A stretch of DNA of 64,000 nt from Solitalea lacus (lineage in GTDB: Bacteria > Bacteroidota > Bacteroidia > Sphingobacteriales > Sphingobacteriaceae): NCBI RefSeq assembly GCF_022014595.1, contig NZ_CP091740.1:1536200-1600199 (forward strand). The letters run 5' to 3'. A program made the translations under genes and the position numbers. The notes beneath the pieces were generated by a model. That model did not search any database, was not told where the DNA came from, and worked only from the letters and a program-made list of their open reading frames with translations. Below, piece after piece: positions 1 to 14,829 of the stretch (position 1 is its first letter; the number at the start of each line of letters is the position of its first letter).

Positions 1-1
1 A

Positions 2-889
2 AAAATTCAGGCTGTAAAAAAATCAATCACTGAAAAGAAGCCCGTAATAATCGGAATGCTTTGCCCTCCTTCGTTTCACTATGGAAGCGAAGTATGGAAT
101 CCAACAGAAGAGGTGGATTGGACTAAATATGGTGGCCATGCAATGTGTGTAGTAGGTTATGACGATGAAAAGTTTGGTGGCGCGGTAGAAGTTCAAAACA
201 GCTGGGGTAAAACCTGGGCTAATGAAGGCTATATATGGATCAAATATCAAGACTTCGCTAAATACACCAAATATGCTTATGAATTGGTGGATTTGCCTGA
301 GCCAAAGCCGGAGGTTGCTGATCTTTCCGGAAATATAAAATTTGTCTTGGCATCGGGCCAGGAAATGCCTGCAAATCTTCATATATCTACCCGGGGCTTA
401 ACCGTTGTGCCTGCAAAACCTGCAGCTGGGCCGTTAACGCTTTATCGCACTTCAGAATCATATATTTCTGGTACCCGTTTCAGAATTTTCATATCCAACA
501 ATGAGCCCGCATTTGTATACGCTTTCAGTACTGATCTAAGCAATGAAATAACCAAAATTTTTCCTTATGAGGATAATATTAGCGCAGCATTAACCGACAA
601 ACGCAATGACGTGGCCATCCCTGATGAAGATCATTTTATTGAATTTGACAATCGGCCTGGGACTGATTTTTTATGCGTTTTGTACAGTAGGGTAGAGTTG
701 AATATTAATGATTTGATTCAGAAGATAGGCACTCAGCAAGGAAGTTTTAGTGAAAAAATCTTTAAAGTGATGGGAGATAAAATGGTGGATCCTAAAAATA
801 TACAATTTTCCAAGGAAAAGATAGCATTTCAGGGTTTTAGTAAAGGGAAAAGTGTTGTTGCCATGATGGTTGAATTGGAACATAAATAA
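2..889 (+). CDS. Papain-like (C1A) cysteine peptidase, C-terminal part (5' end lies outside the window), fused to a C-terminal DUF4384-like beta-rich domain
   Basis: The reading frame is open back to nt 2, so the CDS is truncated by the window edge. The motifs HAMCVVGYDD (catalytic His region) and NSWGKTWANEGYIWIKY match the papain His and Asn-Ser-Trp-Gly signatures. The downstream segment GTRFRIFISNNEPAFVYAFSTDLSNEITKIFP fits the DUF4384 pattern (G-x-hydrophobic ... YhYhF..D..G.h.hLFP) that is often found fused to caspase-fold proteins. Confidence 0.7.
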   Translation, partial: KIQAVKKSITEKKPVIIGMLCPPSFHYGSEVWNPTEEVDWTKYGGHAMCVVGYDDEKFGGAVEVQNSWGKTWANEGYIWIKYQDFAKYTKYAYELVDLPEPKPEVADLSGNIKFVLASGQEMPANLHISTRGLTVVPAKPAAGPLTLYRTSESYISGTRFRIFISNNEPAFVYAFSTDLSNEITKIFPYEDNISAALTDKRNDVAIPDEDHFIEFDNRPGTDFLCVLYSRVELNINDLIQKIGTQQGSFSEKIFKVMGDKMVDPKNIQFSKEKIAFQGFSKGKSVVAMMVELEHK

Positions 890-911
890 TTCTAAAAATT
901 ATTCAAGTAAA

Positions 912-3065
912 ATGAAAAAGTTATTTCTCCTAATGCTTATTCTTTACACTTGTTCAACAAGTGTTCTTTATGCCCAATCTAAAAAGTTAAAAGATTTAGC
1001 ATCTTATAAAAGTGCTTTAATATCCGCAAAACCCATGGAGAAAGCCGTAGTGGATAAAGATTTTATTCTGGCAGAGAAACTGTTTTTGCAATCGTTGGAC
1101 ATTTATCCTGTTTGGGCTATTGTTTACGATGACTTTATAAATGCTAAAGTGAACATTGGAGATATAAAAGGAGCAAACCTCTTGTGGGAAAAGGCTATTG
1201 CGATTTATAAAAAACACGATCAAATATTAGTATATAATCCTCCTTTATTTTCAACCTTTAATATTGCTAAAGGTTCGGATTATGATTACGTTCCCAGTTC
1301 TGAAAAGATAAAATCAATTTACTTGGACAGGGCCTACGCCAATGCCACTCATGGCGATATCAACCAAACAGTAAAGGATTATTTAACTGTAGAGAGCTCC
1401 ATTGGCTTAAATACAGAGAATTATAACTTTTTGGCAGTTTATGCAACACAAGCCGGTGATTTTGAAACAGCAAGAAGAAGTGTTGATACTTTAAAAAAGG
1501 TTTACGCCAACGGTAAAAGAAAGTTAATGGATGCCCAGTTGCAGCCCGTTTATACTGAAGCATTTTTATTACTTGCTATGGGGGAGTACGCTAAAGCGCT
1601 TCCTTTGGCCGAGCGGCTAGATAATGAAGATAAGGGGCTCAATACAACCTGGAAAGGGTTTGCCCGAATGATGAAAGCCGAAGCATACGCAGGTTTAGGT
1701 GATTTGGAAAATGCTCAAAAAGCTCTTGAACATGCTTTGAAACATCCTGTATTTGGAAAAAATACCGTTAATGTTCAATACACTACTGGCCTTGTAGCTT
1801 TGTTAGCAAAGGATTATGTAAAAGCAGCGGATGCATTTACTAAAGAGATCAATCATAAAGGCGCTTGGGGAAAGCATAGATTTTATACTCGAAGAGCAGA
1901 AGCACACATCGGTCTGAAAGACTACATAAAGGCAAAAAGTGATTATGAAACAGCTTTGTTATATCATCCTAGCTATGAACCGGCCATATTAGGTTTGGCT
2001 AATTTGGAGGGACGTGCTATTGCAGTTCGTAAAACTGATAAAACTCCTCCTACTATAAAACTGACCGAACCTTCTAATGCTCGCGGTCTGAAAATCACTG
2101 CATCAAGTAATGATATGATGGTAAAAGGCGTTGCTAGCGATTTATCAGGCATAAAAAGTGTAAGCATTAATGGTCAACCGGTATTTTCAAAAGAGCAGGG
2201 AGATTTTTGGGGTAGTGTCTCCTTAAAAGATGGAATTAACAAGGTAACAGTGAAAGCCATTGATATTGCAGGCAATATTGCCGAACAGATTTTTGAAATT
2301 GAAAAGCAAAATACACCGGTTGCAGTTAATGATGAAATTTTGCCAGTTGCAACGGTTGAAGCAAAAAATTATGCTCTAATCATTGCTGCACAGAATTACG
2401 AAGATTCATCTATTCCTTCACTCGAAAATCCGGTTTCGGATGCCATAAAACTAAAACTAATCATTAAGAACAATTACAGTTTTGCCGATGATAACATTTA
2501 TACGCTTTTTAATCCAGGGGTGAATGATTTTAAGAAAAAATTTGCCGAGATGCTGGAAGTTATCCGGCCGGATGATAACCTTATTATATTCTATGCAGGC
2601 CATGGCATTTGGGTAGAGAAGGAGAAAAAGGGATATTGGTTGCTTACCGATGCTAAACGAAATGATATTAACACATGGCTTTCCAATAAACTGGTGTTGG
2701 AGATGATCTCCAAAATCCCTTCACGTCACACGCTTTTAATTACAGATGCCTGTTTTTCGGGCTCTGTGTTCAAAACCCGAAGCATAGGAGCTGGTGCACC
2801 TGCTGCGATTCGGGAAATGAGCGAAAAGATCAGCCGTGTGGCGATCACTTCGGGCAATGACACCGAAGTGCCGGATCAATCTGTGTTTATGAAATACTTG
2901 GTTAAGGCACTTTCTGAAAATAAAGAAAAGTATTTAACAGCTCAGAAAATGTTCATTAATCAGATCATTGAAGCGGTGATGACTGAAACAAAAACTGAGC
3001 CTCGTTACGGTACCTTAGAAGCAGCCGGCCATGTGGGTGGGGATTATATTTTTATGAAGAAGTAA
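912..3065 (+). CDS. Secreted TPR-repeat / Ig-like / caspase-fold (peptidase C14) protein, paralog 1 of 4 (most divergent)
   Basis: The signal peptide MKKLFLLMLILYTCSTSVLYAQS starts at the internal Met at 912; the ORF track starts at 870. The N-terminal ~330 aa is TPR-like helical repeats. The middle domain PPTIKLTEPSNARGLKITASSNDMMVKG...VTVKAIDIAGN is Ig-like. The C-terminus carries the caspase His-Cys dyad motifs IIFYAGHGIW and LLITDACFSGSV. Confidence 0.8.
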   Translation: MKKLFLLMLILYTCSTSVLYAQSKKLKDLASYKSALISAKPMEKAVVDKDFILAEKLFLQSLDIYPVWAIVYDDFINAKVNIGDIKGANLLWEKAIAIYKKHDQILVYNPPLFSTFNIAKGSDYDYVPSSEKIKSIYLDRAYANATHGDINQTVKDYLTVESSIGLNTENYNFLAVYATQAGDFETARRSVDTLKKVYANGKRKLMDAQLQPVYTEAFLLLAMGEYAKALPLAERLDNEDKGLNTTWKGFARMMKAEAYAGLGDLENAQKALEHALKHPVFGKNTVNVQYTTGLVALLAKDYVKAADAFTKEINHKGAWGKHRFYTRRAEAHIGLKDYIKAKSDYETALLYHPSYEPAILGLANLEGRAIAVRKTDKTPPTIKLTEPSNARGLKITASSNDMMVKGVASDLSGIKSVSINGQPVFSKEQGDFWGSVSLKDGINKVTVKAIDIAGNIAEQIFEIEKQNTPVAVNDEILPVATVEAKNYALIIAAQNYEDSSIPSLENPVSDAIKLKLIIKNNYSFADDNIYTLFNPGVNDFKKKFAEMLEVIRPDDNLIIFYAGHGIWVEKEKKGYWLLTDAKRNDINTWLSNKLVLEMISKIPSRHTLLITDACFSGSVFKTRSIGAGAPAAIREMSEKISRVAITSGNDTEVPDQSVFMKYLVKALSENKEKYLTAQKMFINQIIEAVMTETKTEPRYGTLEAAGHVGGDYIFMKK

Positions 3066-3075
3066 ACTGCAAATT

Positions 3076-5151
3076 ATGAGAAAAATACTACTTACTCTAT
3101 TTTTTTTAATTTCCTTTTTGACTGTCTATTCACAGTCGATTCTCGCACCTTACGCAACTAATCAGGATTATAAATCCTATAATCAAGCTAAAAAACTCTG
3201 GAAAAATGGAGATTATGTTGAAGCTGAAAAGTTTTATAGAAAAGCTTATACAAATAGTGGTAATACTAGCTATTTAGCTGAATTAGGAAAAAAGAAATTT
3301 GAAATTGGAGATGCAAAGGGTGCCAATTCAGTTTATGATATTATCATTAAAGCTGAGAAAGAGAAATCTCAAATTTTTCGAACGACTTTGAATTTGTACT
3401 ATTATGAAAAGATAGATAACAACTTTAAAAAAGGAGATCCGGAGGTTGGGCTAGCTTCGACTCTTGAGTTTATGGAATCGTTGGGCGATAAGATCGGACT
3501 ATCAGAACGTAATCTTTTTCTACCTATATATACTTCGGCTGCTGAAACTGCCTTTGCCCTTGAAAATAAAGAAGCCCTCATAAAGCTTCATGATAAGGCT
3601 GCAAGTATAAAAAATGCTGATTACGGCGAGTTTTTAAGTTTCGTATATCTCAATCTGTTGAATAAGGACTATGAAAAGGTACTTAAAAGGGTTGAAGATG
3701 TACAAGTGAACGGCGGTTTTATGTCCTCAAAAACGGTTGCTAATAGTTTATTGCCAACTGTTTTTGCCCATATGGGAGAAAATGAGAAGGCGCTGGCAGC
3801 TATTGACAGGGCGAAAGGAAGTATTCTAATAGGAGAGGATTACTTTCATTATGTTTATGGATTAATAGCGCTTAATAAAAAAGATTATAAGGAAGCGATT
3901 GATCGTTTCTCTAAGGCCATAAAGGGTTATACGTTTATAGTTCGCATAGAGCCTGTAGGAAAATACAAGCATTATAGCAAAAGAGCCGAAGCCTATCTTG
4001 GCCTCGGTGATTTTATTCAAGCAAGAAAAGATTATGAGGCTGCATTGGTATACAACCCCGATTATGAACCTGCTTTAAATGGAATTGCAAAATTAGAAGG
4101 AAGAATGGTGCAGGATCGTAAAGCAGATAAAACACCTCCTGTTATTGCTGTTACTGAGCCTTCGGTAAATAGAGGGTTAAAGGTGACTGCTTCCGGAAAT
4201 GATATCATGGTAAAAGGAACCGCTATGGATCCTTCAGGTTTAAAAGCGGTAACCATTAACGGGCAAGCAGTGTATTCACAGGAGGCTGGAAGTTTTTGGG
4301 GCAATGCTGCTTTAAAAGCTGGTGCATCCAAAATTGTGATTGCCGCGACTGATATGGCTGGCAATACAGCTGAGTTTACTTTTGATATCGAAAAACCAAT
4401 AAATCCAGTTGCAGTTAATGACATTGTACCTATAGCAGAAAAAGAAGGCAGAAATTTCGCTGTTTTAATTGCTAGTCAAAATTATGACGACAGTTCAATT
4501 CCATCTTTGGAAAACCCTATTTCGGATGCGGTGAAATTGAAACTGATCCTTAAAAACAGTTATAATTTTACTGACGAGAATATCATCACTCTATTTAACC
4601 CTGAACGATCTGATTTTAAAAAACAGTTTTTGCACTTAACGGAGATGATTCAACCGGAAGATAACCTGATCATTTTTTATGCCGGCCACGGTATTTGGGT
4701 GGATAAAGAGAAGAAGGGGTATTGGTTGCTGACAGATGCCAAACGAAATGATGTAAACACATGGCTGCCGAACAAGGAGGTTTTAAATATGATTTCCGGA
4801 CTCTCTTCCCGCCATACATTATTGATTACCGATGCATGTTTCTCGGGATCAGTATTCAAAACACGGAGTATTGGAGCCGATGCGCCTGCAGCAGTAAAGG
4901 AAATGAGTCAAAAGATCAGCCGTGTGGCCATTACTTCGGGCAATGATACAGAAGTGCCAGATGAATCGGTATTTATGAAATACCTGGTTAAAGCTTTGTC
5001 TGAAAATAAAGATAAATACCTCACTGCGCAGAAAATGTTCATCACTCAAATCATTGAAGCGGTGATGACCGAAACCAAAACAGAACCTCGTTATGGAACG
5101 CTTGAAGCAGCCGGCCATGTTGGTGGAGATTTTATTTTTATGAAGAGGTAA
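3076..5151 (+). CDS. Secreted TPR / Ig-like / caspase-fold (C14) protein, paralog 2
   Basis: Signal peptide MRKILLTLFFLISFLTVYSQS, TPR region, Ig-like domain, YAGHG and DACFSG motifs. The C-terminal ~330 aa is about 90% identical to paralogs 3 and 4. There is a 10-bp intergenic gap to the upstream gene. Confidence 0.8.
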   Translation: MRKILLTLFFLISFLTVYSQSILAPYATNQDYKSYNQAKKLWKNGDYVEAEKFYRKAYTNSGNTSYLAELGKKKFEIGDAKGANSVYDIIIKAEKEKSQIFRTTLNLYYYEKIDNNFKKGDPEVGLASTLEFMESLGDKIGLSERNLFLPIYTSAAETAFALENKEALIKLHDKAASIKNADYGEFLSFVYLNLLNKDYEKVLKRVEDVQVNGGFMSSKTVANSLLPTVFAHMGENEKALAAIDRAKGSILIGEDYFHYVYGLIALNKKDYKEAIDRFSKAIKGYTFIVRIEPVGKYKHYSKRAEAYLGLGDFIQARKDYEAALVYNPDYEPALNGIAKLEGRMVQDRKADKTPPVIAVTEPSVNRGLKVTASGNDIMVKGTAMDPSGLKAVTINGQAVYSQEAGSFWGNAALKAGASKIVIAATDMAGNTAEFTFDIEKPINPVAVNDIVPIAEKEGRNFAVLIASQNYDDSSIPSLENPISDAVKLKLILKNSYNFTDENIITLFNPERSDFKKQFLHLTEMIQPEDNLIIFYAGHGIWVDKEKKGYWLLTDAKRNDVNTWLPNKEVLNMISGLSSRHTLLITDACFSGSVFKTRSIGADAPAAVKEMSQKISRVAITSGNDTEVPDESVFMKYLVKALSENKDKYLTAQKMFITQIIEAVMTETKTEPRYGTLEAAGHVGGDFIFMKR

Positions 5152-5163
5152 ACTGTAATAATT

Positions 5164-7260
5164 ATGAGAAAAATACTGCTTACTCTATTACTTTTAATTT
5201 CAGTTTCGATTGTCTATTCACAGTCGATTCTCTCACCTTACTCAACTAATCAGGATTATAAATCATATAGTCAAGCCCAAAAACTCTGGAAAAATGGAGA
5301 TTATGTTGAAGCTGAAAAGTTTTATAAAAAAGCTTATACCAATAGTGGGAATGTTTCGTACTTATGGACATTAGCAAAAAATAAATTCGAAATCGGTGAT
5401 GTAAAGGGTGGCAATTCGGTTTATGACATCATCATTAAAGATAAAACTGAATACGTAAAGGGGAAGCCTCAAATTTTCCGAACGAATCATTTAAATCCGT
5501 TTTATTTTGAAAAGATAGATAACAACTTTAAAAAAGGTGATCCGGAGGTGGGTTTGGCCTCGTCTCTTGAGTTTGTTGAAACAATGGGGGATAGGATTGG
5601 ATTTACTGAAAGTAATTTCTTTGTAGTTGTATATACCTCGGCAACTGAGACTGCCTTTGCTCTGGATAATAAAGAAGCCCTCAAAAAATTGCATGAGAAA
5701 GCTGCAAGTGTAAAAAATGGCGAATACGGTGAATTTTTAAGTTTTGTATATCTCAATATATTGAATAAAGATTACGAAAAGGTTCTCAAAAGAATTGAAG
5801 ACGTACAAACGAATGGTGGCGGTTTTACGAACTCTAAATTAGTTGCCAGAAGCTTATTGCCAACTCTTTATGCTCATATGGGAGAAAATGAGAAGGCTTT
5901 GGCTGCCATAGACAGAGCGAAAGAAAGTATACTATTAGGAGAAGATTACTTTCACTATGTTTATGGGTTAATCGCGCTCAATAAAAAAGATTATAAGGAA
6001 GCGATTGATCGATTCACAAAGGCGATAAAAGGTCGCATGTTTTTAGTTCACAGGATAGAGCCTGCAGGAAAATTTAAACATTATACTAAAAGAGCAGAAG
6101 CTTATGAAGGGCTTGGTGATTTGATACAAGCAAGAAAGGACTATGAAGCTGCATTAACGTATAATCCGGATTACGAACCGGCTTTAAATGGAATTGCAAA
6201 ATTAGAAGGAAGGATGGTGCAAGATCGTAAAGCAGATAAAAATCCTCCTGTAATTACAGTGACTGAACCTTCTGTAAACCGAGGATTAAAAGTGACCGCT
6301 TCCGGAAATGATATCATGGTAAAGGGTACCGCTATAGATCCTTCGGGTTTAAAAGCGGTAACCATTAACGGACAAGCTGCATATTCACAAGAAGCTGGAA
6401 ATTTTTGGGGGAATGTTGCTTTAAAAGAAGGATCATCCAAAATCGTGATTGCTGCAACGGATATGGCCGGCAATACAGCAGAGTATACTTTTGATATCGA
6501 AAAGCCAATATCTCCGGTAGCGGTTAATGACATTGTCCCCGTAAAAGAAAAAGAAGGAAGAAATTTCGCGGTTTTAATTGCCAGTCAAAATTATGACGAC
6601 AGTTCAATTCCATCTTTGGAAAACCCTATTGCTGATGCTGTAAAATTGAAATTGATCCTCAAAAACAGTTATAATTTTATTGACGAGAATATCATCACCC
6701 TGTTTAATCCGGGCCGAGCTGACTTTAAGAAACAGTTTTTACTGCTATCTGAAATCATTCAGCCTGAAGACAATTTGATCATTTTCTATGCCGGTCACGG
6801 TATTTGGGTGGATAAAGAAAAGAAAGGATATTGGTTATTGACGGACGCACAGCGAAGTGATGTAAATACGTGGCTACCTAACAAGGAGGTTTTAAATATG
6901 ATTGCCGGCCTTCCCTCACGCCATACATTGTTGATTACCGATGCATGTTTTTCTGGCTCAGTATTCAAAACACGGAGCATTGGAGCCGATGCACCTGCAG
7001 CTGTAAGGGAAATGAGCCAAAGGATTAGCCGTGTTGCCATTACTTCGGGTAATGATACGGAAGTGCCTGATCAATCAGTATTCATGAAATACCTGGTTAA
7101 AGCCTTGTCTGAAAATAAAGATAAATACCTCACCGCGCAGAAAATGTTCATTACTCAAATTATTGAAGCAGTCATGACCGAAACGAAAACCGAACCTCGT
7201 TATGGCACTTTAGAGGCAGCCGGACATGTGGGCGGAGATTTTATTTTTACAAAGAAGTAA
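5164..7260 (+). CDS. Secreted TPR / Ig-like / caspase-fold (C14) protein, paralog 3
   Basis: Same architecture. The catalytic His codon is at 6796-6798 (FYAGHG) and the Cys codon at 6937-6939 (DACFSG). There is a 12-bp gap to the upstream gene. Confidence 0.8.
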   Translation: MRKILLTLLLLISVSIVYSQSILSPYSTNQDYKSYSQAQKLWKNGDYVEAEKFYKKAYTNSGNVSYLWTLAKNKFEIGDVKGGNSVYDIIIKDKTEYVKGKPQIFRTNHLNPFYFEKIDNNFKKGDPEVGLASSLEFVETMGDRIGFTESNFFVVVYTSATETAFALDNKEALKKLHEKAASVKNGEYGEFLSFVYLNILNKDYEKVLKRIEDVQTNGGGFTNSKLVARSLLPTLYAHMGENEKALAAIDRAKESILLGEDYFHYVYGLIALNKKDYKEAIDRFTKAIKGRMFLVHRIEPAGKFKHYTKRAEAYEGLGDLIQARKDYEAALTYNPDYEPALNGIAKLEGRMVQDRKADKNPPVITVTEPSVNRGLKVTASGNDIMVKGTAIDPSGLKAVTINGQAAYSQEAGNFWGNVALKEGSSKIVIAATDMAGNTAEYTFDIEKPISPVAVNDIVPVKEKEGRNFAVLIASQNYDDSSIPSLENPIADAVKLKLILKNSYNFIDENIITLFNPGRADFKKQFLLLSEIIQPEDNLIIFYAGHGIWVDKEKKGYWLLTDAQRSDVNTWLPNKEVLNMIAGLPSRHTLLITDACFSGSVFKTRSIGADAPAAVREMSQRISRVAITSGNDTEVPDQSVFMKYLVKALSENKDKYLTAQKMFITQIIEAVMTETKTEPRYGTLEAAGHVGGDFIFTKK

Positions 7261-7272
7261 ACTGCAATAATT

Positions 7273-9360
7273 ATGAGAAAAATACTACTAACTCTAATAC
7301 TTTCAATATCTGTTTCGATTGTCTATTCACAGTCGATTTTCTCAAATCCTGGTTTTGATACCCAAACCTATAATCAAGCTGAAAAACTTTGGAAAAATGG
7401 AGATTATGTTGAAGCTGAAAAGCATTATAGAAAGGCTTATTCAAATACCGGAAACGTGTCGTATTTATGGACATTAGCAAAAAAGAAATTCGAAATCGGT
7501 GATGTAAAGGGGGCCAATTCGGTTTATGATATCCTCATTAAAGATCAAACTGAATACGTTAAAGGGAAACCCCAATTTTCCAGAACGACTTTAAATCTAT
7601 ACTATTATGAGAAAATAGATAACAACTTTAAAAAGGGTAATCCGGAGGTCGGATTATCAACTGCTTTGGAGTTTGTTGAGTCTATGGGTGAAAAGGTTAC
7701 GGAATCTGAACGAACATACTTTCAGAGTATTTATTATAATGCTTGTGAGACAGCATTTGCCCTTGATGATGAAAAAGCTCTGGTAAAATTACATGAGAAA
7801 GCTTCGGGAGTAAAAAACGGAGAATATGGTGAGTTCTTAAGCTTTGTTTATTTGAACTTGGTTCGAAAAGACTATACAAAGGCACTTGAAAAAATCGAGA
7901 ACGTTTTAGAAAAAGGTGGTGGGTTTATGTTCTCTAAAATGGTGGCAAAAAGTTTATTGCCAGTTGTTTATACTCAAATGGGAGAAAATGAAAAAGCGCT
8001 GGAAGCAATAAAACAATCAACGTCAAGTGTTTTAGTTGGTGAGGACTACTATAATTATCATTATGGGTTAATTGCCTTAAATCAAAAAAAATACCAAGAA
8101 GCGATCGATCGGTTTAACAAAGCTATTAAAGGTTATATGGTTCTGTATTTAAGAGTCGAACCAGTGGGGAAATATAAGCACTATACTAAAAGAGCAGAAG
8201 CTTATGAAGGGCTTGGTGATTTAATCCAGGCAAGAAAGGACTATGAAGCTGCATTAACGTATAATCCGGATTACGAGCCTGCTTTAAATGGAATTGCAAA
8301 ATTAGAAGGAAGGATGGTGCAAGATCGTAAAGCAGATAAAAATCCTCCCGTAATTACAGTGACTGAACCTTCTGTAAACCGAGGATTAAAAGTGACTGCT
8401 TCCGGAAATGATATCATGGTAAAGGGTACCGCTATAGATCCTTCGGGTTTAAAAGCGGTAACCATTAACGGACAAGCTGCGTATTCACAGGAAGCTGGAA
8501 ATTTTTGGGGGAATGTTGCTTTAAAAGAAGGATCTTCCAAAATCGTGATTGCTGCAACGGATATGGCCGGCAATACAGCTGATTATACTTTTGATATTGA
8601 AAAGCCAATAACTCCGGTAGCGGTTAATGATATTGTCCCTGTAAAAGAAAAAGAAGGAAGAAATTTCGCGGTTTTAATTGCCAGTCAAAATTATGACGAC
8701 AGTTCAATTCCATCTTTGGAAAACCCTATTGCTGATGCTGTAAAATTGAAATTGATCCTCAAAAACAGTTATAATTTTATTGACGAGAATATCATCACCC
8801 TGTTTAATCCGGGCCGCTCTGACTTTAAGAAACAGTTTTTACTGCTATCTGAGATCATTCAGCCTGAAGACAACCTGATCATTTTCTATGCCGGTCATGG
8901 TATTTGGGTAGATAAAGAAAAGAAAGGATATTGGTTGTTGACAGACGCCACTCGAAATGATGTAAATACGTGGCTACCTAACAAGGAGGTTTTAAATATG
9001 ATTGCCGGACTTCCTTCACGCCATACATTGTTGATTACCGATGCATGTTTCTCTGGTTCAGTATTCAAAACACGGAGCATTGGAGCCGATGCACCAGCAG
9101 CTGTGCGGGAAATGAGCCAAAGGATCAGTCGTGTTGCCATTACCTCGGGTAATGATACGGAGGTGCCTGATCAATCAGTATTCATGAAATACCTGGTTAA
9201 AGCCTTGTCTGAAAATAAAGATAAATACCTCACCGCGCAGAAAATGTTCATCACTCAAATTATTGAAGCGGTCATGACCGAAACGAAAACAGAACCTCGT
9301 TATGGAACGCTTGAAGCTGCCGGACATGTGGGTGGAGATTTTATTTTTACGAAGAAATGA
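7273..9360 (+). CDS. Secreted TPR / Ig-like / caspase-fold (C14) protein, paralog 4
   Basis: Same architecture. The 3' ~1.08 kb (about 8281-9360) is about 97% identical at the nucleotide level to 6181-7260 of paralog 3. The N-terminal TPR half is diverged. Confidence 0.8.
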   Translation: MRKILLTLILSISVSIVYSQSIFSNPGFDTQTYNQAEKLWKNGDYVEAEKHYRKAYSNTGNVSYLWTLAKKKFEIGDVKGANSVYDILIKDQTEYVKGKPQFSRTTLNLYYYEKIDNNFKKGNPEVGLSTALEFVESMGEKVTESERTYFQSIYYNACETAFALDDEKALVKLHEKASGVKNGEYGEFLSFVYLNLVRKDYTKALEKIENVLEKGGGFMFSKMVAKSLLPVVYTQMGENEKALEAIKQSTSSVLVGEDYYNYHYGLIALNQKKYQEAIDRFNKAIKGYMVLYLRVEPVGKYKHYTKRAEAYEGLGDLIQARKDYEAALTYNPDYEPALNGIAKLEGRMVQDRKADKNPPVITVTEPSVNRGLKVTASGNDIMVKGTAIDPSGLKAVTINGQAAYSQEAGNFWGNVALKEGSSKIVIAATDMAGNTADYTFDIEKPITPVAVNDIVPVKEKEGRNFAVLIASQNYDDSSIPSLENPIADAVKLKLILKNSYNFIDENIITLFNPGRSDFKKQFLLLSEIIQPEDNLIIFYAGHGIWVDKEKKGYWLLTDATRNDVNTWLPNKEVLNMIAGLPSRHTLLITDACFSGSVFKTRSIGADAPAAVREMSQRISRVAITSGNDTEVPDQSVFMKYLVKALSENKDKYLTAQKMFITQIIEAVMTETKTEPRYGTLEAAGHVGGDFIFTKK

Positions 9361-10538
9361 GAAATTGGATAAAATGGCTGATTAGTTTTGGGCATGCAAT
9401 TGTCTTGCTTGTACTTACTGCTTTTTGGCTAAATACAGACTTTAGTTATGGCGATGAGCAATTACTTGTAAAATGGTCATCTATTCTTAAACGAGTGGTC
9501 TTCAATATAGATGAAGACCCTCCTAAAGAAGATTATTTATTTATCAATTTGGCTTATGAAAAGGCATTAATTCCAAGAGAAGAAGGACTGGGGAATGAAG
9601 TAATTACTGACAGGGTAAAGCTTGCACAGTTTTTTGAAATTCTTAAACGGAATCAGAAGTCGGTTAAATTTACAGTCTGTGATGTATTTCTTAAAGGAAA
9701 ATCAGAAAGTGATAGCTTGCTTCAAAGTAGTATTTCTGGAATCAAGAATATTGTTTTTCCAACGCATCACGGCGAGGATGGAAAGCCTGAAGAACTTGAT
9801 TTGAATGTTCCTCATGCTATTGCTGATTATAGAATGGCAAGCGGAGGATTCCTGAAATTCAAGCTTTTTCAGGACGATAATCTTTCCACCATTCCGGTTT
9901 ATTTATATGAAAAAACCAAAGGCCGTAAAATTGATCATCAAAACGGACTCTATTTCGACAACGGAAAATTGAGTTTAAATTCTACTATAATTGATTATCA
10001 AATACGCAGTCATGAACTATTTGAGCAAGGTGAATATCCGGTGGTTAACCTTTCAGAACTTCTTATGCTTCCGGAAGATGTAATTGTGAATGAATTTTTA
10101 AAGAACCGAATTGTATTGATTGGAGATTTTAACAATGATGTACATGAAACAATTTTTGGTTCTACACCGGGCACGCTCATACTTCTCAATGTTTATTTGA
10201 CACTTAAGGCGGGATATCACTTTGTAACTTACTGGTGGGTTGTTTTTATGCTTATGGCATATACCATTTTCTCAAGATTAATGCTTTTTCCCGAAAATGA
10301 TTCAGAAAAAATCAAAAAAATAAACTGGATCGGCCCACTTTTAGGAAGCGCAACTTATCTTTCTGTTCTTTCTGTAGCCTCTTATTTAATGTTTAATATT
10401 CATCTTCAAGTCTTGATATTAACTTTATATATTACTCTTCTCCGATACATCATTCGACTTAATCAAGTTGAGTGGAGTAAGGATCAGTTAAAAGAATGGG
10501 CATTAGCTCTACGTGAAACTTATTTTAATTTTAAATAA
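9357..10538 (+). CDS. Stand-alone CHASE2-like extracytoplasmic sensor domain membrane protein (no output domain)
   Basis: The start ATG overlaps the upstream stop (ATGA). Topology is an N-terminal TM (WLISFGHAIVLLVLTAFWL), then a ~270-aa extracytoplasmic region, then 3 C-terminal TMs, then a ~30-aa cytoplasmic tail. The segment NRIVLIGDFNNDVHETIFGSTPGTLILLNVYLTL resembles the conserved CHASE2 core (D.x.TP.G..PG..h.A). Confidence 0.5.
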   Translation: MRNWIKWLISFGHAIVLLVLTAFWLNTDFSYGDEQLLVKWSSILKRVVFNIDEDPPKEDYLFINLAYEKALIPREEGLGNEVITDRVKLAQFFEILKRNQKSVKFTVCDVFLKGKSESDSLLQSSISGIKNIVFPTHHGEDGKPEELDLNVPHAIADYRMASGGFLKFKLFQDDNLSTIPVYLYEKTKGRKIDHQNGLYFDNGKLSLNSTIIDYQIRSHELFEQGEYPVVNLSELLMLPEDVIVNEFLKNRIVLIGDFNNDVHETIFGSTPGTLILLNVYLTLKAGYHFVTYWWVVFMLMAYTIFSRLMLFPENDSEKIKKINWIGPLLGSATYLSVLSVASYLMFNIHLQVLILTLYITLLRYIIRLNQVEWSKDQLKEWALALRETYFNFK

Positions 10539-11359
10539 TGATGGGAAACTTACTTGCAATTTTATTATGGATTTTAATGGCTTTTTTGCCAGCTGAAAAA
10601 TATTATGTCACGTTTATAAAGGGGACTGTTCTTTTAGAGCGCACAAAAAAACAGGTTAAAATTGGAGATGCGCTAGAACCAGAAGATAAGCTTGTGTTTA
10701 GTGATAAAAACGCAAAGATTTCTTGCATAAGCCCATCAAAAGGTAGATTTGATATTAGTGCTCTATCTGCTAAGGCAGGCAGCAAAGGAGAGTTATTAGC
10801 TGTTTTACGCTCAAGCCTTATTCCAGCCACCGGAACCTATCATTTAAGTACACGCTCTTTATCCGATCAGAATGTGGATCCGGAAGCCTATTTTAAAACC
10901 GGTACTGATGATCGTTTTTTAATTGTCGAAAACGAGTGGATTCCTGTAAATGATATATACTCAACTAAGGGTGGGAATTTTTTCTTTCTTCAATATACAA
11001 TCAATGGAAAAACTGTATTGAAGAAATTACCAAAACAAGAGAATGCTATTGCTTTTAACAAGAGTCTTTTTGTTGATGAAAGTGGGGGTATATTAAATTC
11101 CGATAATTACGTTAACACTATGCTTTGTTTTCAAGAGAGCACCAACGGAGTCCCTAAGTCAAAAACTGTAGCAAAGTTTATCCCTGTTATAGTTGATAAA
11201 GCTGAAATACTCGCTGAATTAGCAGTGCTTCGTAATAATTTACAAAACCTTTATCCTAATAATGAAAAAGCAGTAAAGACGGAGCTATATGCTCATCTTG
11301 CTGCAAATTATGGTACAATAAATCAAAATTTATTTGAAGATTTGATGCACAGTAAATAA
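10538..11359 (+). CDS. Secreted or membrane-anchored protein with an N-terminal FecR-like beta domain
   Basis: The start overlaps the upstream stop (TAATG). N-terminal hydrophobic signal/anchor LLAILLWILMAFLPA. The segment VTFIKGTVLLERTKKQVKIGDALEPEDKLVFSDKNAKISCISPSKGRFDI matches the FecR fold pattern (GxV......G..L..GD.L...D.L.T...A...L.F.DGS). Confidence 0.4.
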   Translation: MMGNLLAILLWILMAFLPAEKYYVTFIKGTVLLERTKKQVKIGDALEPEDKLVFSDKNAKISCISPSKGRFDISALSAKAGSKGELLAVLRSSLIPATGTYHLSTRSLSDQNVDPEAYFKTGTDDRFLIVENEWIPVNDIYSTKGGNFFFLQYTINGKTVLKKLPKQENAIAFNKSLFVDESGGILNSDNYVNTMLCFQESTNGVPKSKTVAKFIPVIVDKAEILAELAVLRNNLQNLYPNNEKAVKTELYAHLAANYGTINQNLFEDLMHSK

Positions 11360-11436
11360 TTATTCTGCCTTTGGATTGAAACCAATAAATGATGCAGATT
11401 AGGGTGGAGAATGCATATAAAAATTTGCAATAGCAA

Positions 11437-11472
11437 CAAAAGGATTTGAATTACAAATCCTTTTGTCTTTTA
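11437..11472 (+). terminator. Rho-independent terminator ending the protease/CHASE2/FecR operon
   Basis: Perfect 12-bp inverted repeat caaaaggatttg / caaatccttttg with a 5-nt loop, followed by tcttttat. Confidence 0.55.
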
Positions 11473-11686: not shown

Positions 11687-13078
11687 ATGAAAAAAAACAT
11701 CTTTTTAACCTTTTTTGTGCTTATTAGTTTTGCATCCCTGGGTCAGCAAAAATCTGTTATTACAGGGAAAATTACCAACCCACAAGCTGGGATTTCTGAA
11801 ATAAAATTCAAATACCTTTATGATTTTCGAAATTTTCGGAAGAATGCGGATGCGAAAATTTACAAAGTAGATGAGAAAGGAAATTTTAAAATTGAAGAAA
11901 ACCTTTCCGAACTAGTATTTGTGCAATTTGAATATGGAGATTGGGGTAATACTTTACTGTTAGAGCCAGGCGCTAATGCAACAATGTCATTTGATTCAAA
12001 ATCTAAAGATAAGGACAAATTATACAAAATTAATGGTAGAGGAGCAGTAGGTTGCCAATTTTTAGAAGCTATTTTTTATTCTGATACTACCATAAGTAAA
12101 TCCAAAGATTTTAGTAAAGCTTTTACAAAAATCGACGAATTGGGAAAACAAGCCCAGGAAGGATTAAATACTAAGTATTCAAAAGTGCTTTCTTCTGCCG
12201 CCATTACTCATTTGAAAGAAGAGCTTTATTATTTTACTTATCTCACCAAGTTGCAATTAATAACAAAAGACAGGGAAAATATTAACCAGATTTATAGCGG
12301 AAAGGCTCCAGAATATGTTGTTGAGTTCATTAAGGACCTTCCCTTTAAAGATGCCAAACTTAATAACTTTGGATTTTACCTTCTTTATAACAATGGATTA
12401 CATTTGAGATTTGCATTGGAGCAAGAAGATTATAATGTTAGGCAGTATAATGTTATTAATAAAGTGCTTCCACCTGTATTAGCAGAAAAGGAATCTGTTA
12501 GTGTAATTAATCGACTAATTGAAAATGGAGATTTCCTAATTGCTGACAAACTTATCAAGGATTTAAGTCAACGATTCCCAGCATCTGATAATCAAAAATC
12601 ATTTGATGAAAAAATTGCCGAAACAAAAAAATTGTTGTTCAACCTTGCTCCCGGCAAAAATGCACCAGCATTTATTTTGAAAAACTTGAATGGCAAGGAA
12701 GTTTCATTAAGCGATTTTAAAGATAAAGTTATATACCTTGATTTTTGGGCAAGCTGGTGTGGGCCATGCAGAGGGGAAATGCCTTATGCTAAAAGAATCA
12801 AAGAAAAATATAAGGACAATAAGGATGTTGTATTTCTTTATGTTTCTATAGATGAAAAGGAAGATGCTTGGAAAAAAGGTATTGAGGAAAATAAGATTGA
12901 GGGCGTTCATTTAATTAGCAATGGATTTTTCAGTGATGTTCCTAAGAAATACATGGTGAATGGTATACCCCGGTACTATTTGATTGGAAAAGGCGGAGAG
13001 ATTATCTCAAATGAAGCACCTCGCCCAAGCTCTGAAGAGCAGTTGACGACGATGATAGATAAAGCCCTTAAGAATTAA
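11687..13078 (+). CDS. TlpA/ResA-family periplasmic thiol:disulfide oxidoreductase with a long N-terminal domain
   Basis: Signal peptide. Thioredoxin-fold motif FWASWCGPCRGEMP in the C-terminal domain. Confidence 0.8.
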   Translation: MKKNIFLTFFVLISFASLGQQKSVITGKITNPQAGISEIKFKYLYDFRNFRKNADAKIYKVDEKGNFKIEENLSELVFVQFEYGDWGNTLLLEPGANATMSFDSKSKDKDKLYKINGRGAVGCQFLEAIFYSDTTISKSKDFSKAFTKIDELGKQAQEGLNTKYSKVLSSAAITHLKEELYYFTYLTKLQLITKDRENINQIYSGKAPEYVVEFIKDLPFKDAKLNNFGFYLLYNNGLHLRFALEQEDYNVRQYNVINKVLPPVLAEKESVSVINRLIENGDFLIADKLIKDLSQRFPASDNQKSFDEKIAETKKLLFNLAPGKNAPAFILKNLNGKEVSLSDFKDKVIYLDFWASWCGPCRGEMPYAKRIKEKYKDNKDVVFLYVSIDEKEDAWKKGIEENKIEGVHLISNGFFSDVPKKYMVNGIPRYYLIGKGGEIISNEAPRPSSEEQLTTMIDKALKN

Positions 13079-13332: not shown

Positions 13333-14829
13333 TTATAAATGCTTTGAAATTTGTTCAAACAATAATTCTTTTTGGCTAGGTCGATAGGCTTTTTTTTCGG
13401 CAATATTCCCTTGTTTATCTATAATTATATAAGTGGGTACACTGTAACCATTGCCATCCCAAATAAGCTTATTGATATCATTTTGTAACTCTTTATTCGC
13501 TCTAACATGAGTGCCCTCTAACTCATAGTATTTAATCATTTCTTTCCATCGCGTATCGTATTTGTCTTCATCAATGGAAATATACAGCATGGTAACATCC
13601 TTTTCATTCAGGAATTTCTTCAATTCTTTAGTGTATTGGAATTCAGCTTTGCATGGTCCACACCATGTGGCCCAGGTGTCAATTAAAATAGTTTTGCCTT
13701 TAAATTGATCAGTAAGCTCTTTTAGTGTGTTTATTTGGCTATACTTTGATCCAATTTTCTCGCCGCTTGCATATTTGGCTTTTGCTTTGATTTGAAAAGC
13801 AATAACATCCTCTATTAATGGTTGAATTAAAGGAGCGTATTTGCTGTAGGGGAATTGTCTTTTGAAATCGTTAAATAATTCAATTAATGCCGATTGGTAA
13901 AGTTTGCTATTGGCATCTGAATAAATTATATTGGCTAGAGCATACTCTGCAGCGTGGTCTTTAAATTCAGAATTAATAGTGTTTCCGATTCTTTTTAAAT
14001 CGTCATTTTCACGTTCACTAGGCGGGTTCTGACCTGATTTTTTAATTAGATAATGCTTATATTTTACCAGATAGGTATAATAATAATCAAACACCCAAAG
14101 CATTTGAGTGGCGCTAAAGCTGTTTGGTGGGTATAGTTGATAGGTTTTGTGCCACAAAGCTTCAAAATCAGAAGGTAAGGAACTTTGATAAAGCTTATGG
14201 TTTTTAGGTAATTCCTGTTTTCTAAATTGATGTACTATTGCATAAGCGGTAATCCCAGCAAAGTAATAATTAGTTGATATTTTTAAATAGTTAAAAAAAG
14301 TGGTATCTATTTGAAATTGATTAAATAGTTTTTCTTCCTCAGCAAAGGTGCTTAAACGTCTGCGATTGATTTTTTCTTCCACATCAACAGCAGCGCTATC
14401 AGTCAAGTATTGATAGCCTTCATACATTATGGGAGATACGTACCTTCCTTTAGGCAAGAAGTTCTCTGTTAAAAAATGTTGTCCGGTGGCGTTACTGCCT
14501 TCGAATTGCCAAGGATTGGTTTTATTAGCGGTATCCAAACTTATTTTTATTGAGTTGCCTTTTTGTACATACAAGAAGGCTTTTTTGTCCAATACCTTTA
14601 TTGTTATCGGGCCGGTTTCATCTTCTTTAAGTGGAATTGATAAGGTTCCCGAATTTGAGATTTTTGCATGTCTTTCGTTGCCCGCAAAATAATTATGATT
14701 AATAGGTATGCTTATAGTTACATCATCGTTTTTAGCATTTCTGACATTCAATTCAATTGTTGCGATTTGCGCATGTGCTACTGTATACGCACAGGTAAAC
14801 AATATAAAACTCAGTAGGAGTTGTCTCAT
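13333..14829 (-). CDS. TlpA/ResA-family periplasmic thiol:disulfide oxidoreductase (second paralog, convergent)
   Basis: Signal peptide MRQLLLSFILFTCAYTVAHAQ. C-terminal motif WATWCGPCKAEF. Confidence 0.8.
   Translation of the reverse strand: MRQLLLSFILFTCAYTVAHAQIATIELNVRNAKNDDVTISIPINHNYFAGNERHAKISNSGTLSIPLKEDETGPITIKVLDKKAFLYVQKGNSIKISLDTANKTNPWQFEGSNATGQHFLTENFLPKGRYVSPIMYEGYQYLTDSAAVDVEEKINRRRLSTFAEEEKLFNQFQIDTTFFNYLKISTNYYFAGITAYAIVHQFRKQELPKNHKLYQSSLPSDFEALWHKTYQLYPPNSFSATQMLWVFDYYYTYLVKYKHYLIKKSGQNPPSERENDDLKRIGNTINSEFKDHAAEYALANIIYSDANSKLYQSALIELFNDFKRQFPYSKYAPLIQPLIEDVIAFQIKAKAKYASGEKIGSKYSQINTLKELTDQFKGKTILIDTWATWCGPCKAEFQYTKELKKFLNEKDVTMLYISIDEDKYDTRWKEMIKYYELEGTHVRANKELQNDINKLIWDGNGYSVPTYIIIDKQGNIAEKKAYRPSQKELLFEQISKHL

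Follow-up and report, generated by a model that had tools for sequence, protein, structure and literature searches.

Positions 1-11,466 of a 64,000-nucleotide stretch of Solitalea lacus contig NZ_CP091740.1 (the "window"; positions count from its first letter and all features are on the plus strand unless noted) form a single co-directional gene block. Its core is a tandem array of four caspase-family genes, here called P1 to P4 (912-3065, 3076-5151, 5164-7260 and 7273-9360), which lies between a gene for a papain-like C1 peptidase with a DUF4384 domain and genes for a CHASE2-domain membrane protein and a 273-residue protein, g273. Each of the four predicted proteins starts with a signal peptide, continues with a TPR solenoid and an Ig-like domain, and ends in a C14 caspase domain whose His/Cys dyad is intact. 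Each paralog is composed of two modules, one variable and one constant, which recombine at a junction equivalent to about residue 307 of P3, and the products of the array may act outside the cytoplasm as a panel of proteases with different specificities. The principal evidence is an abrupt step in synonymous divergence between P3 and P4, a conflict between trees of the two gene halves, and the recurrence of the same breakpoint in related species.

Recombination at a module boundary

The boundary is sharpest in the comparison of P3 with P4. The maximum chi-square breakpoint falls at position 6082 of P3, equivalent to 8182 of P4 (chi2 = 209, p <= 0.0005; the highest value among 2000 permutations was 21.9). 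Mismatches amount to 26.8% on the left of this point and 4.5% on the right; at third codon positions the corresponding values are 40.6% and 11.5%. Synonymous divergence (dS, Nei-Gojobori) drops from 1.16-1.30 in the TPR half to 0.20-0.21 in the constant module. The two arms of the recombination tract, 6082-7260 in P3 and 8182-9360 in P4, are 95.5% identical. An earlier note on this DNA had put the identity of 6181-7260 and 8281-9360 at about 97%; the value is 95.5% of nucleotides, and 97.5% is reached only in 6082-6716, compared to 93.2% in 6717-7260. This inner step at 6717 (p about 0.011) hints at more than one event. The high-identity tract begins about 100 nucleotides before 6181, where the last TPR repeat starts, and the constant module therefore consists of the last TPR, the Ig-like domain and the caspase domain. 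The 5' end and the gene junction are conserved as well, the proportion of synonymous differences (pS) being 0.15-0.31 in the first 40 codons.

Trees were constructed by neighbor joining with 300 bootstrap replicates from P2-P4 and the single-copy genes of S. koreensis (locus L001) and S. agri (L002); a Flavihumibacter gene served as the outgroup. In the TPR-half tree P3 groups with S. koreensis (300/300) and P2 with S. agri (296/300), and P4 falls outside. In the constant-module tree P3 groups with P4 (300/300), P2, P3, P4 and S. agri form a clade (300/300), and S. koreensis falls outside. The conflict between the trees and the synonymous step together imply that the two halves differ in history, which is a result of recombination and not merely of stronger constraint on one half. 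At the level of sequence this demonstrates that recombination took place at the module boundary.

The TPR halves have themselves moved. Their dS values are 0.44-0.45 between S. koreensis and both P3 and P2, and 0.43 between P2 and S. agri. The background dS between S. lacus and S. koreensis is 1.9-3.6 for three other genes of the operon, and about 2 or saturated for the constant module. Because the TPR-half values lie under this species background, paralogy alone is insufficient, and the data appear to require that the TPR halves of P2 and P3 were exchanged between lineages. The P2 TPR half is also a mosaic: its informative sites are koreensis-like in codons 1-120, agri-like in codons 121-240 and koreensis-like again in codons 241-306 (runs test, p = 0.0002). 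The module swapping proposed in the earlier note is thus borne out, down to patches smaller than a module.

Two further observations concern exchange on a wider scale. The dS between S. lacus and S. agri is uneven among the genes that flank the array (0.63 for g273, 1.33 for the C1 peptidase and 2.2 for CHASE2), and the recombination mosaic may extend beyond the caspase genes. The S. koreensis constant module (L001, 10001-12097) has 81% amino acid identity to a Flavihumibacter soli gene (L003, ~9971) and 78-80% to the S. lacus paralogs; this slightly greater likeness to a Chitinophagaceae gene hints that constant modules or whole operons may also cross larger taxonomic distances.

Not every pair of paralogs is a mosaic. 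The mosaic conservation described in the earlier note holds for P3/P4 but not for P2/P3, which are uniformly diverged along the gene (dS of 0.62-0.65 in the N-terminal half and 0.76-0.77 in the C-terminal half). Between P2 and P4, dS is 1.42 in the TPR half, which in P4 is the most divergent among P2-P4, and 0.66-0.68 in the constant module. P1 is an older paralog with a distinct TPR type, and its synonymous sites are saturated relative to P2-P4 along the whole gene (pS 0.6-1.0). Homogenization of P1 was therefore rejected, and the better conservation of its caspase half is explained by purifying selection only. Concerted evolution of the effector half, which had been proposed for the family, is accordingly found in P3/P4, with its dS step and 300 of 300 trees, and not in P1. 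Compared with those of P2-P4, the caspase domain of P1 has 73-75% nucleotide identity and 82% amino acid identity, less than the 85% or so that had been estimated; the nucleotide identity is 80-82% in the last 100 codons only. Its N-terminal half, which had been called unrelated, is strongly different (25-28% amino acid identity to P2-P4) yet still scores as TPR, of a different type. The closest relatives of P1 are L028_168 and L018_10168 for the TPR half and L003_5524 for the catalytic half. Judged from the sequences, the P3/P4 tract is the sole recent event in the window, and P1 and P2 are older.

To place these events in context, we scanned one genome per species and recovered 32 loci in Sphingobacteriia, Chitinophagia and related metagenome-assembled genomes (MAGs). 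Gene order is kept (C1 peptidase-DUF4384, caspases, CHASE2, g273), with the partner genes flanking the caspase array in 19 related loci. The copy-number variation that the earlier note anticipated exists between species: there is one copy in S. koreensis, S. agri and Daejeonella rubra, two in Pedobacter planticolens, and about ten in the MAG loci L007 and L014. The TPR halves of 72 full-length genes fall into deep types that are common to different genomes, and the catalytic halves often group by genome. For genes in multi-copy genomes, the nearest relative resided in the same genome in 23 of 61 cases for the constant module and in 4 of 61 for the TPR half. The most extreme pairs have amino acid identities, in the TPR half and the constant module respectively, of 17% and 95% (L031_5316/7530), 29% and 94% (L007_3484/5730), and 34% and 93% (L012_7667/9941); the constant-module pS of such pairs is 0.41-0.61, while the TPR pS is saturated.

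In the arrays L007 and L014 the TPR types follow one another in the same succession. Between L007_5730 and L014_5719 the identity is 75% for the TPR half and just 79% for the constant module, and the constant module of L007_5730 is 90-94% identical to those of neighbors with TPR halves that are 25-29% identical. This pattern reads as the textbook signature of concerted evolution. Both here and in the comparison of the window with S. koreensis and S. agri, it is only in the converted segment that paralogs of one genome resemble each other more than they resemble their orthologs. The breakpoint fell at P3 residue 304-312 in 10 of 12 tested pairs, which came from several lineages.

In seven arrays (L003, L005, L007, L011, L016, L018 and L031) the first or last genes are more distant caspase paralogs, whose constant modules show 36-47% identity. 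The N-terminal regions of these paralogs, which at 170-690 amino acids are far longer or shorter, lie outside the TPR types that were analyzed.

Protein architecture, predicted export and the operon

Pfam matches to TPR repeats, an Ig-like sandwich (Glucodextran_B) and Peptidase_C14 were found in every paralog, the last (PF00656) at 41.7-44.9 bits in P1-P4, well above the gathering cut-off of 21.4. In P3, whose protein exactly matches a Solitalea lacus entry named "caspase family protein" at NCBI (a search of the assembly index for the exact P3 protein gave no match), a hydrophobic signal peptide (residues 1-19) is followed by the variable TPR region (residues 20-306; 5221-6081), the last TPR (307-357; 6082-6234), the Ig-like domain (362-447; 6247-6504) and the caspase domain (467-698; 6562-7257). 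Pfam and an AlphaFold2 (AF2) model agree on these domains, and Foldseek adds support for the last. The dyad residues of P3, His545 (6796-6798) and Cys595 (6946-6948), lie in the motifs YAGHG and DACFSG, which are present in P1-P4 and invariant in an alignment of 57 homologs.

The signal-like N-termini finish in ...YSQS or ...YAQS, and Gln20, directly after the hydrophobic segment, is kept in at least 90% of the 57 homologs. These features fit the Q-rule for signal peptidase I (SPase I) substrates of Bacteroidetes (PMC5837995), and the paralogs are predicted to be exported by Sec and SPase I; the signal peptide was called from the hydrophobic N-terminus and Gln20, not by a dedicated predictor.

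A phmmer search of PDB sequences with P3 returned no match, and a comparison of folds was therefore needed. The AF2 model of P3 has a mean predicted local distance difference test score (pLDDT) of 77, with a confident TPR solenoid at residues 30-357 and a beta-sandwich at 363-447. Its Foldseek matches were the periplasmic TPR-CHAT region of DdvA (top, E = 2.9e-7), the MALT1 paracaspase, metacaspases and GSU0716. The match to the MALT1 caspase domain has a probability of 1.0 and a TMt of 0.59, in a domain modeled with moderate confidence; against the whole DdvA chain the TMq is 0.26 and the root-mean-square deviation 22 A. The modeled caspase domain of P3 has the caspase/hemoglobinase fold. Pfam matches at E <= 0.01 listed Peptidase_C14 and included neither the CHAT family nor a C-terminal sorting domain of the type IX secretion system (T9SS); the protein ends with the caspase domain. 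The NCBIfam model for EACC1-associated caspases (NF047832) was not reached, at 57.6-61.3 bits against a cut-off of 140.

The gene block begins with the 3' part of the C1 peptidase-DUF4384 gene (56-889; Pfam PF00112 and PF14326), which is cut by the start of the window; it is complete in relatives, at about 475-479 amino acids (orthologs L002 8419-9858 and L012 6262-7689). For P1, the program that lists open reading frames (ORFs) gives a TTG start at 870. The starts at 3076, 5164 and 7273 and the period of about 2.1 kb that had been reported for P2-P4 agree with the ORF list (start-to-start spacing of 2088 and 2109 nucleotides), and comparison of the sequences upheld the conserved junctions at all three boundaries. 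These junctions, 10-12 nucleotides of the form TAAACTGCAA(T)AATTATG, occur at 3063-3078, 5149-5166 and 7258-7275 and read GTAAACTGCAAATTATGAGAAAAATACT, GTAAACTGTAATAATTATGAGAAAAATACT and GTAAACTGCAATAATTATGAGAAAAATACT. The CHASE2 gene (9357-10538) was assigned from a Pfam PF05226 match of 25.3 bits, for which the cut-off is 26.3. Its start overlaps the stop codon of P4 (ATGA) and its stop abuts the start of g273 (10538-11359), an arrangement that suggests translational coupling. A terminator-like hairpin (11436-11466), with a 13-bp stem followed by a T-rich tail, closes the series. The C1 peptidase-DUF4384 gene, the four paralogs, CHASE2, g273 and the terminator are one operon, because the junctions are only 10-12 nucleotides long, stop and start codons overlap, and a terminator is found after g273 only.

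Some signals within the array were set aside. Tandem Repeats Finder reported nothing over the array, a null result that is uninformative because the longest period it considers is 500 and the period of the array is 2.1 kb. Sigma-70-like promoters at 4537, 6646 and 8746 were disregarded, since the number of matches equals that in shuffled sequence; the sigma-70 consensus is not expected to be valid for Bacteroidota. Minus-strand ORFs of 81-120 amino acids occur at 4062-4424, 6171-6533, 8271-8573, 6795-7040 and 8895-9140, in equal relative positions in P2, P3 and P4. They were rejected as genes and are regarded as by-products of the conservation of the sense frame.

In the CHASE2 protein the sensor domain stands alone between transmembrane segments, and no output domain such as a kinase or cyclase accompanies it. 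The protein g273, encoded by the final operon gene, has a hydrophobic N-terminal segment and matches no known family. Its orthologs are 260-273 amino acids long (L001 13276-14085, L002 13269-14087 and others), always follow CHASE2, and share the invariant motifs YYVTF.KG near the N-terminus, C63, F148-F150 and H253..N257.G259. Searches of Pfam (E up to 10), NCBIfam and PADLOC, a scan of 15 orthologs and a PDB profile search gave no match, and a single-sequence AF2 model was unusable (pLDDT 46). A CHASE2-FecR gene neighborhood is known from Burkholderia (PMC5192318); the guess that g273 is FecR-like is unsupported.

The operon is surrounded by core chromosomal genes, namely two TlpA-like redoxins, dnaE, and GH2 and GH3 glycosidases, and its GC content of 35-40% is like that of its surroundings. 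On these grounds a horizontally acquired island was rejected. Directly downstream, 11687-13078 (plus strand) and 13333-14829 (minus strand) encode a convergent pair of signal-peptide proteins, in each of which a long N-terminal region precedes a C-terminal TlpA-like redoxin/thioredoxin domain. This pair was not detected beside the operon in any related locus.

Competing explanations

In the explanation that we favor as the probable one, the variable module consists of the signal peptide and about eight TPR-like repeats, and exists as discrete, anciently diverged types under purifying selection that are reshuffled, whole or piecewise, among paralogs and among related species. The constant module, that is the last TPR, the Ig-like sandwich and the C14 caspase domain with its His/Cys dyad, is repeatedly overwritten between adjacent copies by homologous recombination, either gene conversion or unequal exchange. 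Tracts would stop at about residue 307 as the nucleotide similarity that recombination requires collapses there, and conversion of the TPR module is probably also selected against. After export by Sec and SPase I, the TPR solenoid would pick a protein ligand or substrate, and the Ig-caspase module would cut, working with the C1 peptidase, the CHASE2 protein and g273. The need to work with these shared partners may explain why the constant module varies so little inside one genome. On this reading the array would be an extracytoplasmic protease panel with one catalytic chassis and several specificities.

Several considerations count against this explanation. In old, diverged pairs the recurrent breakpoint partly reflects a change of constraint at the domain border, and the MAG loci may be chimeric. 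The background against which transfer of TPR halves between species was judged consists of three flanking genes with near-saturated dS. The caspase domain of the P3 model (467-698) has moderate-to-low confidence (pLDDT 40-80), and the CHASE2 match stops just short of its cut-off. The tests bear on gene history and on the export signal, not on biochemical function. Finally, the direction of the P3/P4 event is ambiguous: either the catalytic half was converted or one TPR half was replaced.

Under replacement, P4 (or P3) would be a fairly recent whole-gene duplicate whose front half was later swapped for a divergent TPR half contributed by a different paralog or species, the recombination running through the conserved last TPR and the conserved region of signal peptide and junction. 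TPR halves do move, as the dS of 0.43-0.45 for P3-koreensis and P2-agri and the three-piece mosaic of P2 attest, and the conserved 5' end and junction are a possible left homology arm. However, a donor for the P4 TPR half was not found in the 32 loci, the closest having 70% amino acid identity, and the three-gene blocks elsewhere that share one catalytic half, with TPR halves only 25-29% identical, arise more easily by spread of the catalytic half. We consider replacement somewhat unlikely; the two routes are not exclusive, as both are recombination at one boundary. Far less plausible, indeed very improbable, is the view that there was no recombination and that the mosaic reflects stronger purifying selection on the catalytic half. 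This does hold for P1, in which amino acid identity to P2-P4 rises at saturated pS toward the caspase domain, and dN/dS is indeed lower in the constant module (0.04-0.07) than in the TPR module (0.11-0.31). For P3/P4 it is refuted by the roughly six-fold drop in synonymous divergence at a sharp point, of which P2/P3 show nothing, and by the conflict between the two half-gene trees, which has 100% bootstrap support.

The earlier note had also proposed diversifying selection on the TPR half, and in its strongest form this would make the TPR halves immune-receptor-like sensors in an arms race. The dN/dS of the TPR half is 3-4 times that of the catalytic half, the number of paralogs ranges from 1 to about 10, and the periplasmic TPR and caspase-like protein DdvA controls phage defense in Myxococcus (PMC11506125). 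Nonetheless, a dN/dS of 0.11-0.31 lends positive selection no support; in 40-codon windows the proportion of nonsynonymous differences (pN) was below pS everywhere except codons 1-40 of the pair P2/P4 (0.25 versus 0.22, not significant), and no window had pN clearly above pS. TPR types are conserved across genera and common to distinct genomes, with their order kept. PADLOC-DB 2.0 identified no system among the operon genes, giving only a weak match to a generic "caspase" model (25-29 bits) and a chance-level match to Csn2 (E = 0.0012), and the neighbors are dnaE, glycosidases and thiol-disulfide oxidoreductases. An arms race seems improbable. We also rate as unlikely a sensing role, in which each TPR type would recognize its own protein partner, foreign or self, in the periplasm or at the surface and thereby activate the Ig-caspase module to cleave a common target encoded in the operon. 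The CHASE2 protein or g273 could be that target, with the caspase acting by itself or in a cascade that includes the papain-like peptidase, and cleavage would transmit a signal or damage the envelope. Such a system would follow the DdvA/craspase logic in soluble form and with several receptors; its output module would be held uniform by recombination, and its set of receptors would grow and pass between species. That the array is an assembly artefact, its copies wrongly expanded or joined, is scarcely credible judged from the assembled sequence, and the risk of assembly collapse raised earlier is not supported. The longest exact stretch common to two copies is 176 nucleotides (P3/P4; <=48 in other pairs), the four ORFs are intact and each copy is distinguishable, the source contig is chromosome-sized (4,402,330 bp), and many independent assemblies contain such arrays, with 2 to about 10 copies.

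Relation to known systems

The evolutionary process in this array is of a known and general kind, namely the concerted evolution that partial gene conversion brings about among tandem paralogs. As expected of it, the S. lacus paralogs are closer within the genome than to orthologs, synonymous divergence changes in a step, and trees of adjacent segments conflict. The array differs in that the tract boundary sits at one domain junction in many lineages and in that the unconverted half is exchanged between species. The array offers a clear bacterial example, open to quantification, of concerted evolution that is bounded by a domain border, with the junction at about residue 307 in many Sphingobacteriia and Chitinophagia. 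The fixed junction suggests that the two modules have different partners, the constant module probably interacting with the operon proteins and the variable module with diverse ligands. A practical consequence for annotation is that orthology of array paralogs cannot be assigned by whole-gene similarity. The operon itself is widespread and appears to be undescribed; no account of it, or of how its modules recombine, turned up in the literature that could be searched.

The proteins resemble orthocaspases and metacaspases in having Peptidase_C14 above threshold, a His/Cys dyad and a TPR partner. TPR is one of the most frequent partner domains of prokaryotic C14 proteins, and a survey of these proteins by Asplund-Samuelsson et al. 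(2012) noted operons with multiple metacaspases in Bacteroidetes (PMC3501461). The S. lacus proteins differ from these in their signal peptides and in the Ig-like domain between TPR and caspase, and operons of the S. lacus type differ in their constant partners and in arrays of up to about ten copies. Caspase-CHASE2 fusions are known from other phyla, including a cyanobacterium (PMC3501461; fusions also in PMC8195603), and the association of caspases with CHASE2 is thus independently indicated. By linking exported caspase homologs to CHASE2, the operon offers a concrete system for asking what CHASE2 senses.

The TPR-CHAT proteases, which include the periplasmic domain of DdvA from Myxococcus xanthus, the craspase component Csx29 and separase (PMC11506125), likewise have an N-terminal TPR solenoid followed by a caspase-fold protease, which in DdvA is extracytoplasmic. 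They serve as a working analogy, in which recognition by the TPR would gate a caspase-like cut. Unlike them, the S. lacus protease domain matches Peptidase_C14 and not CHAT. Unlike the DdvA system, the operon has neither a transmembrane anti-sigma part nor a sigma factor, and its caspases are predicted to be soluble, not membrane-anchored. The global TM-score between DdvA and P3 is low (0.26), and no comparable paralog arrays have been described for DdvA.

Gingipains also have a caspase-type fold (MEROPS clan CD). In Porphyromonas gingivalis, RgpA, RgpB, Kgp and HagA are mosaic paralogs (PMC10319874, PMC5266723), the diversity of which arose from domain rearrangement and allelic exchange (PMC5266723). 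They differ from the S. lacus caspases in belonging to family C25, in being T9SS cargo with a C-terminal sorting domain, and in being encoded by dispersed genes, whereas the S. lacus proteins belong to C14 and are encoded in strict tandem in one operon. As exported Bacteroidota cysteine proteases with domain-delimited homogenization, they are nonetheless the closest evolutionary analogy in the phylum.

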